Positions 1 through 44,015 of a stretch of DNA of 44,015 nt are shown here, in pieces. Source of the DNA: Escherichia phage vB_VIPECOTPH05B. The stretch lies in sequence record PQ429080.1; one strand, written 5' to 3'. Numbering within the stretch: the first letter of the stretch is position 1; every line of letters starts with the position of its first letter. The translations under genes were made by a program, and so were the position numbers. The notes beneath the pieces were generated by a model that was not told where the DNA came from, searched no databases, and saw nothing but the letters and a program-made list of their open reading frames with translations.

Positions 1-1857
1 TTATCTTCTTCCTCTATGTTGTTTACCTCTGCCCCGGCTCTGCAGCCGAGCAGCTACACCCCGAAGGCCCTTAGACACTTTGCTCTGTGCCCAATCCAAC
101 GGGTTCTCAATGAAGGCCCGAGCCATCTTCTCAGACTCACGCTCAGCCACTACTTTCTCGTCTTCCACCAGGTGCCCGTTCAGCGTAGCCACCATCATGG
201 CGATTGCGTCTGCTCGGTCATCCTTAGCCAGGCTACCGCGGTCGTACGTGATACCAGCCAACTGTGTGAACGCAGAGTACAGCCAACGTCTATCGCGGGA
301 GTACGCCATACAGGTACTGATATCGTCGTGAACCGCACGCTCATGCACCACCAGGCGGTGACGGCGAGTAACTGGGCTGATTGTGTCGATTATACGACGC
401 TCTTTCTGCGTGGAGTTGTTCAGGTCCCTTACACCGATACCGGCGAGACGTCGCTCCCGTAACCGGTTCAGGATAAGCATAGACACGGTGCCGTGCCCCA
501 TGTTGCTCTCCACCACCATATCCGGGATGTCTAACTCTACGCACAGGTCAATCAGTTTATCAATGTTCTCTTCGCTGATACCTCCTTGGAAGCCGCCTAC
601 GGAGAATAGGTGGATGTACGAGTTCGCAGCACCACCAGCAGCGTAGGACACTTCGTCTCCGCCACAACCAGCCGGGTCCACCACCAGCACCTTATGCTGG
701 TACGGCAGGTGCATATCCCCGTAGAATGCTGGGAAGTACATCTGCTGACCCATAATCCCCTCATGCTCGTGCTGGTACAGGTACCGGCGGTCTGCAATGT
801 AAGAGAACGTCTCGGGAGAGGAATCCTGACTGCCTGAGTAAACCAGCATATCCGAAAGCTTGATGCGTGTACGCATCTGGTCGGACAGGGTGGTATCGAG
901 CATGTACTGTAGCTGGAAGCCCTCCGGACCGAAGTCCAGCTCCTTCTCAATCAGTGCATCCTCATCATAGCGCCCAGTGTCTGTGCTCTCGCCTAGCGTC
1001 CCGTCGACGCCGAAGCCGGTGCGTTTATAGCCGCGCTCAATAAGCTCCAGTATATAAGGAGCAAGTGTACTTCCATATCGCTCTTCCATTTCAACAGATG
1101 GAATGCGCCCAGGCCACACGCGGACCTCAAAGCCACGTCCCGGCAGGGTTTTATAGATGCTGTCCTTGGTCTGCGGTGTGCCAAGGTACAGTATGTCCCC
1201 ATGCGTACAGATAGCTGCGAAGTCCTTCGAAATCATCAGCAGCTGCTCACGCTGGGTTTGCGTTAAGCCGTTCTTGGTGGTCTCGATATCGTCTGGAATC
1301 AGCAGGTCCGCACGCTTCCCCTGCAGGGATGCAGTGATACCTACACAGGCCACGCTGGCGGACTTATCCAGTGGTTTCAGGTCGCAGTTGACATCATAAC
1401 CTTCGAATGAAGTACGGTCCCCACGAGTAGGGTCAGCCTTCAAGTAGCACAGCAGTGGCCAGGTTTCCAACATACGAATGATTAGGTTCGCTACATCGGA
1501 CGCCTGCTTCTCTGCACCAGACACAATCAGAATACGGCAGGATTGGTCCTGGATAAGCCTCCAGACGGCATAGAGTGCAGCCAGTGTAGACTTAGCTTCA
1601 CCACGCTGTGCGGCCACCATGCGCTTCCTAGGGCCCTTCTGCATGTACTCTGCAATGTCGGCCTGCATGTCCGTCAGCGTAAAACCCAGGAATCGCATAC
1701 CGATGTACGCGAATTCCCGGAAGTCACTTAACGCAGCGGCCATCATCATCGCGATGTCCTCGCGCTCCTCTTTGGGAATACTGCGCGGATTCGCACTATA
1801 ACCAGTAAGTTTCTGGTTGAGCATGCGCAGTCTTCGCGCAGTCTTCACCGATACCAT
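1..1857 (-). CDS. Terminase large subunit (T7 gp19-like packaging ATPase/nuclease)
   Basis: 618 aa; ATPase-like N-terminal half and nuclease-like C-terminal half typical of T7-group large terminases; last gene of the structural block; stop codon (TAA) occupies window positions 3..1. Confidence 0.88.
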   Translation of the reverse strand: MVSVKTARRLRMLNQKLTGYSANPRSIPKEEREDIAMMMAAALSDFREFAYIGMRFLGFTLTDMQADIAEYMQKGPRKRMVAAQRGEAKSTLAALYAVWRLIQDQSCRILIVSGAEKQASDVANLIIRMLETWPLLCYLKADPTRGDRTSFEGYDVNCDLKPLDKSASVACVGITASLQGKRADLLIPDDIETTKNGLTQTQREQLLMISKDFAAICTHGDILYLGTPQTKDSIYKTLPGRGFEVRVWPGRIPSVEMEERYGSTLAPYILELIERGYKRTGFGVDGTLGESTDTGRYDEDALIEKELDFGPEGFQLQYMLDTTLSDQMRTRIKLSDMLVYSGSQDSSPETFSYIADRRYLYQHEHEGIMGQQMYFPAFYGDMHLPYQHKVLVVDPAGCGGDEVSYAAGGAANSYIHLFSVGGFQGGISEENIDKLIDLCVELDIPDMVVESNMGHGTVSMLILNRLRERRLAGIGVRDLNNSTQKERRIIDTISPVTRRHRLVVHERAVHDDISTCMAYSRDRRWLYSAFTQLAGITYDRGSLAKDDRADAIAMMVATLNGHLVEDEKVVAERESEKMARAFIENPLDWAQSKVSKGLRGVAARLQSRGRGKQHRGRR

Positions 1858-7400: not shown

Positions 7401-8130
7401 TACGAGTTGTAGGCGCTTCTGGGTCGAACATGGGCTCACGCCCAGTACGAGCCTTAGCGGCAGCTTTAGCAGCCCTAGACATATCCCAGAGCTGGTCTAA
7501 CCCAGCTACGCCCGCTATCAGTGCAGTTACCGCGGCGGACTGGCCCAGTTGGTCCTGTGCATAGAACGCAGTGCCTACATCAGCAGCGCGGATAGCGGTA
7601 CGTGCAGCTAAGCCCGCGCGGCCAGCAATACCGGCGGCAGACATCGGGGCCAGGATGAACGGGGAGTCGCCTACCAACATACCCGCGAACCCGGCTACTG
7701 TGTTGTCGGCCATTAAGCGGTCACGGTCACGTTGCTCAAGCATCTGCTGCATGCGGTAGTTGTAATCTTCCACAGACACGGAGTCGTGCAGGTACTCAAT
7801 CTCTTCCTGATTCGGAGCATACAGCTTAGCCCGAGTATCGCTACTCAGGGTCTGCTTAGCATTAAAGTTCGGGTCTCGGTCAAATGCCGGAGCAGAGGCC
7901 TTGCGGATAGCTGCGGCGATTATGCTGTTGCCCATACCTGACGCAAAGCTCTCTGCGGCTGTAGTAGCCGGAGTCTTGGCTTGCGCTAGTAATGAGGCAC
8001 GCTCCAGTGCGTTCAGGCCGTTGTCCCCGGCATCGTTCCAATCTACGCGCTCAGGCGCAGGTTTAAGTGTTGCGCCCTTAGCAGAATCCTTTTCCTGTGG
8101 ATTCGGTTCTTGGTTCAGAAACTGAGCCAT
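4432..8130 (-). CDS. Internal virion (core) protein, largest (T7 gp16 / phiKMV gp37-like)
   Basis: 1232 aa, Ala-rich and predicted helical; third of three consecutive large genes between tail tube B and tail fiber. No transglycosylase motif recognised by eye. Confidence 0.7.
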   Translation of the reverse strand: MAQFLNQEPNPQEKDSAKGATLKPAPERVDWNDAGDNGLNALERASLLAQAKTPATTAAESFASGMGNSIIAAAIRKASAPAFDRDPNFNAKQTLSSDTRAKLYAPNQEEIEYLHDSVSVEDYNYRMQQMLEQRDRDRLMADNTVAGFAGMLVGDSPFILAPMSAAGIAGRAGLAARTAIRAADVGTAFYAQDQLGQSAAVTALIAGVAGLDQLWDMSRAAKAAAKARTGREPMFDPEAPTTRTARDANVTGVGEGEEILTKTLDESIQVSRNNTASVNMKAQHVVQFLKKSEHLTAGQKAILYTLGDAVNDIDFKLVAGSANRSRYTYAQQDLAKRGEISLRAPKQANGSTWTTVGDALRAMDADTSKVAVHELIHAATARAIDSNPEIAKRLEEVRAVIAADSTLTPRMRYYASNVHEMLAGLGDSPEWVEHLARTQSPTGKSMLRQLGEYIMNALGIKAKGSALEDVLDAYEDAVKWTAKDYADQAQSFRSEAFQDLAGSTTLNEAKRAQAMLDGAKKKLSTMFALYDNIAQGNEDLAKLLVSDASAVGGRRPSVVDYKRNLTLEMDARASVVEDAILGALKDKGVGVLSRFFHRSNFRAERAALEDRLSKYLDAAYSADVNGRAVPVPDAEIAPLVDAYRRSGWASKWHEHMLNAGLVDDGALVKSDYYFPRQYSYDKMRQGIAQGNTLDDYRALFRSALRDVYPSMESEVVQRVAKEMVDGIYNGRAGQAGPMWKQLINGMGNDEVVMAMRSAGVEESAIQSFLAGNVRESGSTSPARNLRQRTRFNMDKEYLVNGKSMRMQDLMDTDVAKVMHGYTNRMSGRVGMAYAGVQDLGQLAKMIDESKHVLADSAKWEKTVNDTIDFILGGAPADAGQLPDLLRAAGNMANATMLKNSGLYQLTDTALAMKEFGMARVLRSMRDQPWFKEGAVAIKTPDMAARLDTVLRGNIQKEMRFRWLNTYADDNLDLTRQASWFNVTQNVGQAARHVNGMSMVHRLQVNLNSGIVADELTQMFKGDAEAFKRLERFGLTRDVADRAIAANKANPGAMFQPDLQMQVEVVGTRMMDYLVQQIRTGETSHFAQFNPIGKVIVGYQSFALAATNKILRRELNDAGWIGVAHIMAYQFPLMLLATMAKHGMDGKDVDTQKLISESVMGMSAIGGVSLLQDIFLGDSPRHSLASMGYVTGLLGAVQDLATGNMDIKTFTKQVPLIQEFAPTRAIINNFGDD
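7369..7388 (-). promoter_or_regulatory. Conserved element TTACCGGAGTAGGA, copy 3 (inside the largest internal virion protein gene)
   Basis: 14-nt exact match to the core of the other two copies, same orientation, followed by GAGGGAGAGG. Confidence 0.25.
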
Positions 8131-40879: not shown

Positions 40880-41694
40880 CCTTACATAGTGATGAGTAGC
40901 GTAACCATAGCGACGATATCCCGGAGGGATAGGAGCGGAGGTTACAAGATTCTAGGGATAGCAGCCTACTGCGTAGGCACAGGGCTATCCTAGTGAATAC
41001 CTAGTAGGGACTAGTAAGGACTAGTATTAAGTAGTGTGTATATAGTGCCCTAAAACCCTCCTACTCCGGTTACTTCATTTCATAATAGCTTTCGAATGAA
41101 AGTAAGAGCAAAGGGATAGCATTGGGATAGCGCTGGGATAGCGGCAGAGTGTGGATGTGCGCCCTAGTGGGGAGCGCGCAGCGTAGCATATAATTAGCAC
41201 AATGTAAAGCCCCAAGGATAGCCAGTGGATAGCCTAGTGCATACTAGGGATAGCACTAGGGATAGCACCACAGCGCACTAGCTGGCCCACTAGGCAGGCA
41301 CAAAATAAGCAAGGCAGAGCGCACCCCTATGGCCCACAGGGAGCGCACAGGGAGCGCCTAGTGAACGCACAGGGATAGCACCAGTGCCCCATAGAGCGCA
41401 CAGGAAGCCCTACAAGGCACGCACAGGCAAAGCCATAGGGTAGCACTAGCAATAGCCCTAGCGCAGCGCAGAGAGCCACTGAGGCCCACTGGTGCGCCCT
41501 AGCAGGCCCACCCAGTGCCCCCCCCCTAAATTGGCGCTAGGCACCCCCTATGGGGGCAATTGGGCGCGCTGAGGGTGAGGGACCCTGCCGCGTGAGTATA
41601 ATAAATTTCGGGTTCAGGTATAGACGTGCACCCGGATAGCCCCAGATAGCCCCACATAGACGCCCAGTGCTTACTCTAGTACTTACCCTAGCAC
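40880..41694. repeat. ORF-free repeat-rich region: at least 10 copies of GGATAGC plus CACAGGG/CACTAGG motifs, a C9 homopolymer and short tandem repeats; probable genome-terminus region
   Basis: No ORF of 60 aa or more on either strand across about 800 bp; GGATAGC at about 40956, 41114, 41125, 41136, 41216, 41227, 41248, 41259, 41373, 41634 (first three tandem copies spaced 11 bp); C-run at 41518..41526. Confidence 0.6.
41059..41080 (-). promoter_or_regulatory. Conserved element AAATGAAGTAACCGGAGTAGGA, copy 1 (candidate phage-RNAP promoter)
   Basis: 21 of 22 nt identical to the copy after the RNAP gene; lies in the repeat region upstream of the HNH gene. Confidence 0.35.
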
Positions 41695-41880
41695 TTATTC
41701 TGCGATAGCCCCGGAGGCCCGCAGGGACGCTAACAGGGCCGCCAGAGTAACCGCCAGTGCCTCTGCCGTAGTATCGGTAGCATCAGCTACAGCAACCCCT
41801 TGCAGTACCCCGCCGATAGAGTCCGTAGTAGCTTCCGGTAATACCGGTGCCTTTGCTTGTACAAGCTCAACCAGTGCCAT
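41695..41880 (-). CDS. Hypothetical small protein (61 aa) at the distal end of the lysis cassette
   Basis: ATG 1 nt after the endolysin stop; Ala/Val/Thr-rich with a hydrophobic C-terminal stretch; no lipobox. Confidence 0.4.
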   Translation of the reverse strand: MALVELVQAKAPVLPEATTDSIGGVLQGVAVADATDTTAEALAVTLAALLASLRASGAIAE

Positions 41881-41881
41881 A

Positions 41882-42490
41882 TTAACCTCCTACCCCTTTA
41901 AGCGCAGCGATTGCTGCATTCACATTCTTGTACTGGTTCCCAATAGCTTTGCTCTGCCACTGCCTGCGCTCCCATAGGCCCCAGCACACTTTATTGCGCT
42001 GCCCGTTAACGTATTGGGAACAGTCGAAGGTCCAGCGGTTGCCGCCCTTGTACACCCAGCCAGTGCCGGGGGACTTCTGCTGGTACTTGCTAATATAGCG
42101 CCAGTCCAGCACAGCCTTCGCGGCCGATGCATAATCAAGGCTTTTGAGGTGGCGCTTCACGGAGCTTCCGTTGAAACCCGCCACGCCTACGTTGTACGTG
42201 AAGTCCAGGGCACCTAGCAGGGCCACGTCAGAGAGCTGCATAGGAAGCCCGTCAAGAGCTTTTGCATGCTCCCCTGCTGATTGTATCAGTTGCTTCTGAC
42301 AATCGCTCAGCGTGGCTCTCTGGCCCATTTTGACGCCCTTTGTCTCACCGTAGCAGATAGTCGGGACACCGGCGCTATCCTTATAGGCAGTAAGGCTCAA
42401 CCCCTCGTTATGCTGCACCACCCCGGTAATAGCGCCGCCAAGCATAGTGGCCCCCGTAAGGGCCGCCACAACCTTAGTCCTTAAACTCAT
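41882..42490 (-). CDS. SAR endolysin, T4-lysozyme-type muramidase (GH24-like)
   Basis: 202 aa; weakly hydrophobic Gly/Ala-rich N-terminus (KVVAALTGATMLGGAITGVV) followed by the catalytic E-x8-D-x5-T pattern (NEGLSLTAYKDSAGVPT); start overlaps the holin 3' end. Confidence 0.85.
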   Translation of the reverse strand: MSLRTKVVAALTGATMLGGAITGVVQHNEGLSLTAYKDSAGVPTICYGETKGVKMGQRATLSDCQKQLIQSAGEHAKALDGLPMQLSDVALLGALDFTYNVGVAGFNGSSVKRHLKSLDYASAAKAVLDWRYISKYQQKSPGTGWVYKGGNRWTFDCSQYVNGQRNKVCWGLWERRQWQSKAIGNQYKNVNAAIAALKGVGG

Positions 42491-42725
42491 ATTTAATAGT
42501 CCCCTTACGTGCCTGCTCCTCTAGGAGCTTGAATGTACGCCGCTTGTAATACGCATTCCACGCCAGGGTTAGCACTGCGCACACCGTCGCAGTGATGAAG
42601 CTGATAGTGCTCCAGTTCCAGCTCATTACTTCTGCCACCCAACCTCCAGATACAGCCGCTGTAGTGGCTGTAGTCCCTGCCTTGGTGATTACGTCAGTAG
42701 ACACTACATCCGAAACCTTAATCAT
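42474..42725 (-). CDS. Holin (pinholin-like)
   Basis: About 83 aa from first ATG; weakly hydrophobic first segment, strong TM helix (WSTISFITATVCAVLTLAW), charged C-terminal tail; immediately upstream of and overlapping the SAR endolysin. Confidence 0.55.
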   Translation of the reverse strand: MIKVSDVVSTDVITKAGTTATTAAVSGGWVAEVMSWNWSTISFITATVCAVLTLAWNAYYKRRTFKLLEEQARKGTIKYEFKD

Positions 42726-42733
42726 GTACACCT

Positions 42734-43099
42734 CTATACAATTATCAGTGACTGTGAGAACACAGGCATCGGATAGTTAGTATCTTCCGCCGGGTAGAAG
42801 CCGTACCAGGGGCACCATATATCTCGGTTAGGGTACAGTATCACCCAGTGACTGTGACTTGTACCGCGTTCGCATCTAGCCCTCGTTATACGAGTAGCAT
42901 TCGATTTCGACCACCACACCCTGCCCAGACTCACCCCGCAGGTCCTCGCCACTTTAATTAAATCGCTAAAGGTGCTGGCATCTGTAGGACGTTTAAGGGT
43001 GCTTAGCCATGCGGCCTCAATATCCTCATAAGGGATATCTAAAAGGGATGACAGCGCGGCCGCGCCGCAATCGTCGTCCTTACGTTGTAGCGTCTGCAT
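42734..43099 (-). CDS. Small cysteine-peptidase-like protein (papain/C39-like Cys...His...Asp arrangement) in the lysis cassette
   Basis: About 121 aa from ATG with AAGGAA 8 nt upstream; N-terminal DDDCGAAALSSLL and downstream HSHWVILYPNRD resemble the Cys and His/Asp motifs of C39-type peptidases. Motif-level call only. Confidence 0.45.
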   Translation of the reverse strand: MQTLQRKDDDCGAAALSSLLDIPYEDIEAAWLSTLKRPTDASTFSDLIKVARTCGVSLGRVWWSKSNATRITRARCERGTSHSHWVILYPNRDIWCPWYGFYPAEDTNYPMPVFSQSLIIV

Positions 43100-43499
43100 C
43101 TTCTCGTTCCTTACTTTTACCAAACACTCTGCGCATCACCAGGATGACCACTAGGAAGATAAGTGGAATACTGGCCCCGGCTAATCCCGCCAGGATTAGA
43201 CTGTAGCTGTCGTTGTTTACTACCTGTAAACGGTCAGCCTGGATAGTACCAGTACTAATAGTCTGGACCTGCTTCTTACTAGAAGTGTCCAAAGTCCCAA
43301 CTGTAGAATCGGTTACGTCAGTCTTATTGGTGGTGCTGGCATCCACCTTGTTATTCAAGCCAACGGTTTGTTTGGTGTTCTCGGCACCAACCTGAGCAGA
43401 TACATCCGGCTTAGAACCAACTAAGCCGGTGAGTGCAGAGGTCGCCGAGCAACCAGTCAGAGTAACCGCGAGCAGTAACCCAGCGACCAGTTTACGCAT
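43080..43499 (-). CDS. Candidate unimolecular spanin: outer-membrane lipoprotein with C-terminal transmembrane helix
   Basis: 139 aa; lipoprotein signal with lipobox LTGC and Ser at +2; Ser/Thr-rich middle of about 80 aa; C-terminal TM helix (LILAGLAGASIPLIFLVVILVM) followed by RRVFGKSKERE; no Rz/Rz1 pair seen elsewhere. Confidence 0.5.
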   Translation of the reverse strand: MRKLVAGLLLAVTLTGCSATSALTGLVGSKPDVSAQVGAENTKQTVGLNNKVDASTTNKTDVTDSTVGTLDTSSKKQVQTISTGTIQADRLQVVNNDSYSLILAGLAGASIPLIFLVVILVMRRVFGKSKEREDADATT

Positions 43500-43681
43500 T
43501 AGCTTGCCGCCTTCACTGCGGCTACCGCGGCTTCAAGCGCAGCAATCTTGGTATCGAAGTCTGCGCCAGTCTGGGCAACGTTCTGCGGCTGCGTAAGGAT
43601 AGCATACAGGTCCTTACCGAGAATGTTCAGCTGGCGCAGCAGCTCCTGCTGTTGCGCTGAGGTTGCTTTTGCAATTGCCAT
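43499..43681 (-). CDS. Hypothetical small protein (60 aa), helical
   Basis: ATG with AAGGGG 8 nt upstream; TAA stop overlaps the ATG of the lipoprotein gene (TAATG). Confidence 0.4.
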   Translation of the reverse strand: MAIAKATSAQQQELLRQLNILGKDLYAILTQPQNVAQTGADFDTKIAALEAAVAAVKAAS

Positions 43682-43692
43682 AGTATTACCCC

Positions 43693-44015
43693 TTACTCAA
43701 TAGAGATTGCTGTGATTACACCGTCTTCTACAGTGATCGTCGCTGCTACGGTAGCAGTAGCTCCCGCCTCCCGGGCGGTGGTAAACGTAATGGGTACGGT
43801 TACTTCTGCGCCATTACCTACAACCACTACAGCGCCACCATCAGAGGCGCCTGCAGCAGCCAGTGCAGCTACTGCTACAGCCCCTGCTGCATCTACGTCC
43901 GGACCAAGAGTATCTAGCGGGCCGGTATCATGTGCCAAGGTTGTTGCTTTATCAAGTGCTACCGCTGCATTACGTACTGCCTGGCGCTGTGCCAGTGTTG
44001 CTTCTGCAAATGCCA
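43693..44015 (-). CDS. Hypothetical Ala-rich protein, 5' end runs off the window edge; likely starts at an ATG formed by position 1 plus 44015..44014
   Basis: Reading frame is open to position 44015; under circular wrap the codon (1, 44015, 44014) on the minus strand is ATG, in frame, overlapping the large-terminase stop as TAATG, giving a 107-aa protein. Confidence 0.5.
   Translation of the reverse strand, partial: AFAEATLAQRQAVRNAAVALDKATTLAHDTGPLDTLGPDVDAAGAVAVAALAAAGASDGGAVVVVGNGAEVTVPITFTTAREAGATATVAATITVEDGVITAISIE

Follow-up and report, generated by a model that had tools for sequence, protein, structure and literature searches.

A probable unimolecular spanin of the T1 gp11 family in the lysis cassette of a KP34-like podophage

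The closest described relatives of the lysis gene analysed here are the unimolecular spanins (u-spanins) of the KP34-like phages and gp11 of phage T1. Eriksson et al. (2015) described a u-spanin-holin-SAR-endolysin cassette as a hallmark of the KP34-like genus, took this cassette as one argument for creating the genus, and read its lysis genes as being of the pinholin/SAR endolysin kind (PMC4411677). A matching cassette was found in PhiM1-like phages by Buttimer et al. (2018; PMC6115819). In the survey of Kongari et al. (2018), Table 5 places KP34, F19 and NTUH-K2044-K1-1 in the T1 gp11 family, which has 28 members and is the largest of 13 u-spanin families (PMC6139136). The periplasmic domain of the gp11 family is described as having at least four beta elements after a short helix, and the lysis defect of lambda RzRz1 is complemented by T1 gene 11 (PMC6139136). 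U-spanins, unlike Rz/Rz1, possess no periplasmic Cys (PMC7830690). The u-spanin of KP34-like phages is already known and, having been described in 2015 and annotated in hundreds of phage genomes, is therefore an ordinary gene.

The window, the whole 44,015-nucleotide stretch of DNA that was analysed, appears to be a complete Drulisvirus genome in reverse-complemented and rotated form, with all of its genes on the - strand. Nucleotide comparison with relatives covered the 2.4-kb cassette region (41600-44015), which is 100% identical to vB_VIPKPNMC07C and to four sibling Klebsiella phage isolates from the Philippines, whose records measure 44,014-44,016 bp, and which matches ~250 other Drulisvirus Klebsiella phages at ~89% identity over ~70% of its length. 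The GenBank taxonomy of the matching record is Autographiviridae; Slopekvirinae; Drulisvirus (KP34-like). The window encodes a portal protein, a single-subunit RNA polymerase, a family A DNA polymerase and a T7-type terminase, and these, together with the Autographiviridae taxonomy, bear out in a broad sense the description of the source as a T7-like phage in an earlier reading made from the sequence only. With a probability of roughly 0.92, the 139-codon gene of the cassette encodes a u-spanin of the T1 gp11 family that would carry out the third, outer-membrane step of lysis in this KP34-like podophage. The sequence-only reading had likewise proposed a unimolecular spanin, and this proposal is now supported by the anatomy of the product, its homology to T1 gp11, its cassette context and the absence of an alternative spanin, each of which was observed here (Table 1).

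Table 1. Coordinates and basis of the features of the lysis region
Feature	Coordinates	Strand	Basis
Conserved soluble protein, 60 aa, phrog_7375	43499..43681	-	Maximum KD 0.93, no TMD
Probable u-spanin gene, 139 aa, T1 gp11 family, KP34 gp54 orthologue	43080..43499	-	phrog_1804, BLASTP, feature script
Signal peptide, residues 1-16 (MRKLVAGLLLAVTLTG), predicted removal by signal peptidase II	43452..43499	-	Feature script, Pfam LPAM_1
Lipobox LTGC, residues 14-17	43449..43460	-	Feature script; Cys invariant in alignment
Predicted periplasmic domain, residues 18-100	43200..43448	-	Ser/Thr-rich, no Cys
Most conserved block PDVSAQVGAENTKQ, residues 31-44	43368-43409	-	Nine-sequence alignment
Predicted C-terminal transmembrane helix (inner-membrane anchor), residues 101-122 (LILAGLAGASIPLIFLVVILVM)	43134..43199	-	Hydropathy; all homologues; AF2 helix
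Predicted cytoplasmic tail, residues 123-139 (RRVFGKSKEREDADATT)	43083..43133	-	Alignment, comparison with KP34 gp54
478-bp segment in place of 101 bp of standard Drulisvirus sequence	42654..43131	-	BLASTN breakpoints vs SU552A
Predicted stand-alone C39-fold cysteine peptidase, 121 aa, putative inserted accessory gene	42734..43099	-	AF2 model, Foldseek, alignment
Predicted pinholin-type holin, 83 aa, P21 holin S family	42474..42725	-	PF04971, phrog_20
Predicted SAR-type endolysin, 202 aa, N-terminal segment and lysozyme domain	41882..42490	-	PF00959 2e-21

The spanin reading frame begins with ATG and its product opens with the n-region MRK and the hydrophobic h-region LVAGLLLAVT. The lipobox LTGC with Ser at +2, as claimed from the sequence only, was found by script at residues 14-17, and the Pfam model LPAM_1 scores 20.2 bits, barely above its gathering score of 20. 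Cys17, the sole Cys of the protein, is the predicted acylated residue 1 of the mature form. Among Enterobacteriaceae, lipoproteins with Asp at +2 are kept back in the inner membrane; since +2 is Ser and not Asp, outer-membrane sorting of the spanin is predicted. The Ser/Thr-rich periplasmic segment that had been put at about 80 residues spans 83 (17% Thr and 13% Ser, or 30% together, with one Pro and no Cys), and the lone C-terminal transmembrane helix with a basic cytoplasmic tail proved equally firm: the 19-residue Kyte-Doolittle maximum is 2.65 within residues 101-122, and the membrane-proximal part of the tail is basic (RRVFGKSK after the TMD), with five Lys/Arg near the membrane. Signal and transmembrane predictions, on whose failure the earlier reading would have been dropped, both held in the feature script.

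A single-sequence AlphaFold2 model of the spanin (pLDDT 56.8) is credible only in its two terminal helices, of which the C-terminal one spans residues 99-127, and on this single-sequence input the periplasmic domain is modelled without secondary structure and at low confidence (pLDDT <50). Hydrophobic-moment analysis, a crude test performed on an alignment of diverse homologues from phage records, marks an alpha-type stretch at residues 18-29 and beta-type blocks at residues ~27-35, 41-50, 54-60, 66-71 and 79-91, which is consistent with a short helix and at least four beta elements in the periplasmic domain. Because the AlphaFold2 model is uninformative there, the probable beta-rich character of the domain is drawn solely from this periodicity analysis.

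The profile PHROG 1804 ('Rz-like spanin') matches the product along its whole length (E=5.9e-50). BLASTP aligns it to T1 gp11 with 35% identity over 126 residues (E=6e-24), rising to 46% in the mature periplasmic part (residues 17-100, 60% of the protein). KP34 gp54, which is itself 42% identical to T1 gp11 over 125 aa, shares 89% identity with the window spanin, nearly all differences lying beyond residue 120; together with SU552A_51 and VLC1 gp56 it spans a range of 89-90% over 134 residues. Under the clustering rule for u-spanin families, which asks for 40% identity or more across 40% or more of the length (PMC6139136), the product falls within the T1 gp11 family, at 89% to the listed member KP34 and 46% to T1 gp11. 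As judged from these alignments, the spanin is a true sequence homologue of T1 gp11, beyond shared topology. No u-spanin model in NCBIfam was reached by either the spanin or T1 gp11.

By tblastn, 1,167 of 50,697 phage records carry a homologue, and the family can therefore not be called rare. Approximately 250 of these are from Drulisvirus (80-90% identity), and ~900 fall below 60% identity and belong mostly to T1-like siphophages (Drexlerviridae) and to Pectobacterium and Pantoea podophages, the Drexlerviridae homologues coming from phages of Klebsiella, Escherichia, Shigella, Salmonella, Citrobacter and Cronobacter. Annotations such as 'u-spanin', 'unimolecular spanin' and 'RzlA' are common among them. 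In a set of 5.8 billion proteins 999 clusters matched, and among the matches listed (120 of the 999) all are ~88-100% identical to the spanin. The sequence-only reading had called u-spanins rare and implied that this one was new; the first claim is at odds with the record counts, and the second falls to the publication of 2015 (PMC4411677), to Table 5 of PMC6139136 and to existing GenBank labels.

To these figures can be added an alignment of nine homologues from phages of Klebsiella, Escherichia, Pectobacterium, Pantoea, Vibrio, Stenotrophomonas and Cronobacter. The lipobox Cys and residues P31, A35, Q36, G38, E40, N41, K43 and Q44 are invariant, and the family block, written PDxxAQxGxENxKQ, is invariant across the nine. 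The +2 residue is Ser or Ala. In all nine, a hydrophobic helix lies towards the C-terminus, and the tail after it contains 3-5 Lys/Arg.

Comparison with named systems places the window spanin closest to its Drulisvirus orthologues. In KP34 gp54 and these orthologues, residues 1-120 are essentially identical and the lipobox LTGC and TMD are shared, and gp54 lies upstream of a holin and a SAR endolysin, as in the window. However, at 139 aa rather than 134 aa the window spanin exceeds the KP34 protein by five residues, has a cytoplasmic tail of another sequence, and is followed by a C39-like insert, whereas the holin follows directly in KP34-type phages. T1 gp11 exhibits the same architecture: its lipobox is LSGC, its PDVxAQVGAENTKQ block is near-identical, and a basic tail follows the C-terminal TMD. 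It differs in its TMD sequence, which is unrelated to that of the window spanin, and carries two further Cys that the window spanin lacks, the first in the n-region and the second in the TMD. T1 is moreover a siphophage (Drexlerviridae) with the order holin-endolysin-spanin, whereas the window podophage has spanin-(insert)-holin-endolysin, and T1 gp11 has been tested experimentally, whereas the function of the window spanin is predicted by homology. The RzlA u-spanins of PPWS1, PhiM1-like phages and ROV85 are 36% identical overall and 40-42% in the periplasmic domain; the Pectobacterium and Pantoea RzlA loci share with the window the order u-spanin-holin-SAR endolysin and a small ORF immediately upstream, and ROV85 RzlA, unlike the window spanin, carries a ~25-residue insertion in the periplasmic domain. 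The Rz/Rz1 proteins of lambda and phiKMV share the job of the u-spanin, with an outer-membrane lipid anchor, an inner-membrane TMD and a periplasmic link, and are likewise released after endolysin removes peptidoglycan. They are, however, two polypeptides where the window spanin is one, and show no sequence similarity to it; the window spanin lacks the coiled-coil i-spanin, proline-rich o-spanin and disulfide-linked dimers of Rz/Rz1, and its periplasmic domain is probably of beta type by periodicity analysis, in contrast to the alpha-helical domain of Rz/Rz1.

Downstream of the spanin in the direction of transcription lie a candidate pinholin and a SAR lysozyme. The holin scores 26.8 bits against PF04971 (cutoff 26), and residues 7-25 of the endolysin (VVAALTGATMLGGAITGVV) are Gly/Ala/Thr-rich and weakly hydrophobic (KD 1.81); on these features the lysis system is predicted to be of the pinholin/SAR-endolysin type. 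The order u-spanin, holin, SAR endolysin is common to KP34, SU552A, VLC1 and Pectobacterium phage PPWS1. In the window, the last ~17 codons of the spanin, the C39-like gene and the first ~24 codons of the holin, these in a diverged version, all come from the 478-bp segment. Because the tail lies inside the replaced segment, it reads RRVFGKSKEREDADATT, in contrast to the standard Drulisvirus tail RKLFRKKGQQDD.

A scan of every start codon in the six frames of the window yielded 2,291 start-to-stop candidates, of which three possess a lipoprotein-type signal. Of the three, the spanin ORF alone lies on the coding strand and it alone has a C-terminal TMD, and this combination of lipoprotein signal and TMD is beyond chance. 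A lipobox match on the + strand (7901..8125), which runs antisense to a gene of 1,232 aa, was rejected as a chance match. On the coding strand, the six-frame scan found no second lipobox ORF, whether embedded, overlapping or nearby, and no true candidate with the i-spanin layout of an N-terminal TMD and a soluble periplasmic domain; among the ORFs of this strand, a hydrophobic N-terminal segment with a domain behind it occurs solely in the SAR-type endolysin. The view that no Rz/Rz1 pair is visible, embedded or separate, thus extends to every frame of the window. Nevertheless, Klebsiella phage KPPK108.2 (OK583893) labels the orthologues of the upstream 60-aa gene and of the spanin gene 'putative lysis Rz protein' and 'putative lysis Rz1 protein', which would make the spanin the o-spanin of a two-component pair. 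The two genes do adjoin, the stop codon of the first overlapping the ATG of the second by one base (TAATG), and the N-terminus of the spanin weakly resembles the NCBIfam o-spanin family spanin2_3 (21 bits against a cutoff of 80). However, the 60-aa protein has no transmembrane segment (19-residue hydropathy maximum 0.93) and therefore cannot be an inner-membrane i-spanin, leaving the 'Rz' label of OK583893 unsupported. The lipoprotein has a strong C-terminal TMD of its own, which o-spanins do not, has no periplasmic Cys for intermolecular disulfides of the Rz/Rz1 kind, and is homologous to T1 gp11, which acts alone. A two-component pair is extremely unlikely, and the missing TMD in the 60-aa protein effectively refutes it.

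The remaining alternatives accept the gene as it stands and question its role or its integrity. Cor and Llp are superinfection-exclusion proteins, and a lipoprotein of this kind, or a SlyB-like one, could have come to lie beside lysis genes by chance; several identical or near-identical cluster members carry the automatic JGI name 'outer membrane lipoprotein SlyB', and in the searchable literature neither an experimental test of any KP34-type spanin nor experimental proof of spanin function for the KP34-type orthologue group was found. Such a non-lysis role is nonetheless very improbable, given the demonstrated spanin activity of the homologue T1 gp11, the conservation of both the two-membrane topology among homologues and the placement in lysis cassettes across Autographiviridae and Drexlerviridae, and the lack of any Pfam match to SlyB or glycine-zipper families. 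The lack of another spanin candidate in the genome also argues for lysis, and is suggestive rather than decisive because ~13% of surveyed phage genomes had no identified spanin (Kongari et al., PMC6139136). The ORF could alternatively be intact but functionally impaired, the 478-bp replacement having exchanged the tail and laid a foreign gene over the 3' end, and the foreign last ~17 residues could in principle affect function. Against this, the 139-aa variant (94-100% identical) recurs on ~15 full-length contigs of ~43-44 kb whose samples are independent, and five lytic isolates in culture carry it too, and these phages are therefore viable; the new tail keeps basic residues beside the membrane (five Lys/Arg), and in the nine-sequence alignment no part of the family is less conserved than the cytoplasmic tail. 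Impairment of the spanin is thus a very unlikely outcome of the replacement.

The 478-bp replacement is rare and is the sole unusual local feature, and the C39 insertion might repay further work. The 121-aa ORF overlaps the 3' end of the spanin gene by 20 nt, has no match in PHROG, scores 20.5 bits against Pfam Peptidase_C39 (below the cutoff of 22), and gives a PDB profile match that is borderline by sequence alone (E=0.022). Q5, C11 and H84 are invariant among its homologues. In a five-sequence AlphaFold2 model (pLDDT 83, pTM 0.80), the best Foldseek matches are the peptidase domains of PCAT1 and ComA (TM 0.63-0.67, probability 1.0), and the model predicts a C39/papain-like fold with a conserved Gln (oxyanion hole), Cys and His. 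Among the 50,697 phage records, the ORF is present only in the five sibling isolates and in Pantoea phage Nufs112 (39% identity), where it lies at the genome end, ~1.6 kb from Rz/Rz1, and only four clusters match among 5.8 billion proteins. Two independent metagenomic contigs of ~43-44 kb share the spanin-C39-holin arrangement, which is absent alongside a 135-aa spanin variant. A scan of the phage proteome for double-glycine leaders gave one chance match, at an internal start within the terminase gene. Since its homologues are inconsistently linked to lysis genes, the C39-like gene is regarded as an accessory gene at a permissive site, and probably not as part of the canonical lysis machinery. 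A co-adapted unit is conceivable because the module, in this sub-lineage only, brings together a peptidase, a spanin tail and a holin N-terminus; the cytoplasmic peptidase might trim the holin N-terminus or the spanin tail and so add a proteolytic control step to lysis. This arrangement is considered improbable, but if true, it would make the C39 peptidase a lysis-timing regulator of a new kind.

The course of localisation and function proposed for the u-spanin follows by homology from T1 gp11, because this homologue (~35-46% identity) complements the lambda Rz/Rz1 defect. The spanin would be made late, from a cassette of u-spanin, C39-like insert, pinholin and SAR endolysin, with its translation coupled to that of the upstream 60-aa gene. 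After export through Sec it would receive its lipid on Cys17 and be cut by signal peptidase II; the lipidated N-terminus, with Ser at +2, would then pass to the outer membrane, while helix 101-122 would remain in the inner membrane and leave the basic tail on the cytoplasmic side. The periplasmic domain, 83 residues long, free of Cys and probably beta-rich, would pass through the peptidoglycan mesh, which would keep spanin molecules apart. The pinholin would depolarise the membrane, and the SAR endolysin, once released, would degrade the peptidoglycan; the freed spanins may then diffuse, oligomerise and draw the inner and outer membranes together, and fusion of the two would destroy the outer membrane and let the virions out.

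Public labels of the gene vary between 'Rz-like spanin', 'Rz1', 'hypothetical protein' and 'SlyB'; the vB_VIPKPNMC07C record gives the identical gene as 'Rz-like spanin', and 'U-spanin' is also used in GenBank. The evidence supports one label, 'u-spanin, T1 gp11 family'. Within this family, the highly conserved block PDVxAQVGAENTKQ is an obvious target for mutagenesis of u-spanin membrane fusion.

In the lysis cassette of Escherichia phage vB_VIPECOTPH05B, 101 bp of standard Drulisvirus sequence has been swapped for a 478-bp segment, which introduces the diverged N-terminus of the holin, rewrites the cytoplasmic tail of the u-spanin (139 versus 134 aa) and carries an additional gene between the two. 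The module is present in the metagenomic contigs L014 and L016 and absent from the contig L017. The product of the inserted gene is predicted to be a stand-alone C39-fold cysteine peptidase: residues Q5, C11 and H84 are invariant, and the AF2 model (pLDDT 83) was matched by Foldseek to the peptidase domains of PCAT1 and ComA. The protein possesses neither a signal peptide nor a transmembrane domain, and no obvious double-glycine substrate for such a peptidase is encoded by the phage. The gene is very rare, being found in five sibling isolates (Klebsiella phages), in a single Pantoea phage and in four clusters of metagenomic origin.

Features in and around the lysis cassette and at the ends of the window
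Feature	Coordinates	Strand	Remarks
Large terminase gene	1..1857	-	
Repeat-rich, ORF-free stretch	40900-41690		~800 bp, downstream of lysis cassette
61-aa ORF after endolysin	41695-41880	-	Pfam PF11133, 25.9 bits; phrog_20838
Endolysin gene	41882-42490	-	SAR-type
Replacement segment	42654-43131		carries C39-like gene, spanin tail and holin N-terminus
C39-like peptidase gene	42734-43099	-	invariant residues, AF2 model, Foldseek
Conserved 60-aa protein gene	43499-43681	-	phrog_7375
Gene cut at start codon by window end	43693..44016		

Near-identical copies of the u-spanin in four protein clusters (P0015, P0046, P0061 and P0087) bear the automatic JGI name 'outer membrane lipoprotein SlyB', which is probably a propagated misannotation, given that no Pfam match supports it. 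Directly upstream, the spanin start overlaps the stop of a gene for a conserved, soluble, Ala/Gln-rich 60-aa protein in a TAATG motif; its PHROG has no assigned function, and the 'Rz' label that it carries in one record is a mislabel. A small ORF also lies in this position, directly upstream of the u-spanin, in Pectobacterium phage PPWS1 and Pantoea phage ROV85. Both ends of the window (1-1857 and 43693-44015) are artificial breakpoints in a complete genome that has been rotated and reverse-complemented, and the large terminase gene lies directly upstream of the gene cut at its start codon.

The endolysin of PQ505478, as deposited, begins at an internal Met (window position 42469) to give 195 aa, a start that removes most of the SAR segment, whereas in the Drulisvirus phages KP34 and SU552A it begins at an upstream ATG to give 202 aa and a 17-nt overlap with the holin. 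This upstream ATG exists in the window too. Downstream of the endolysin, KP34 and SU552A possess a large tail or tailspike gene, whereas the window has only a 61-aa ORF, also present in contig L016; its match to models of head-fibre proteins covers their C-terminal ~50 residues. The adjoining ORF-free stretch is dense with short direct repeats, degenerate in sequence and of the (C)ACAGGGATAGCA / CTAGGGATAGCA type, often spaced by ~11 nt, and it also contains two weak inverted repeats; the stretch may hold the genome end or a terminal repeat, or it may be a series of regulatory sites.
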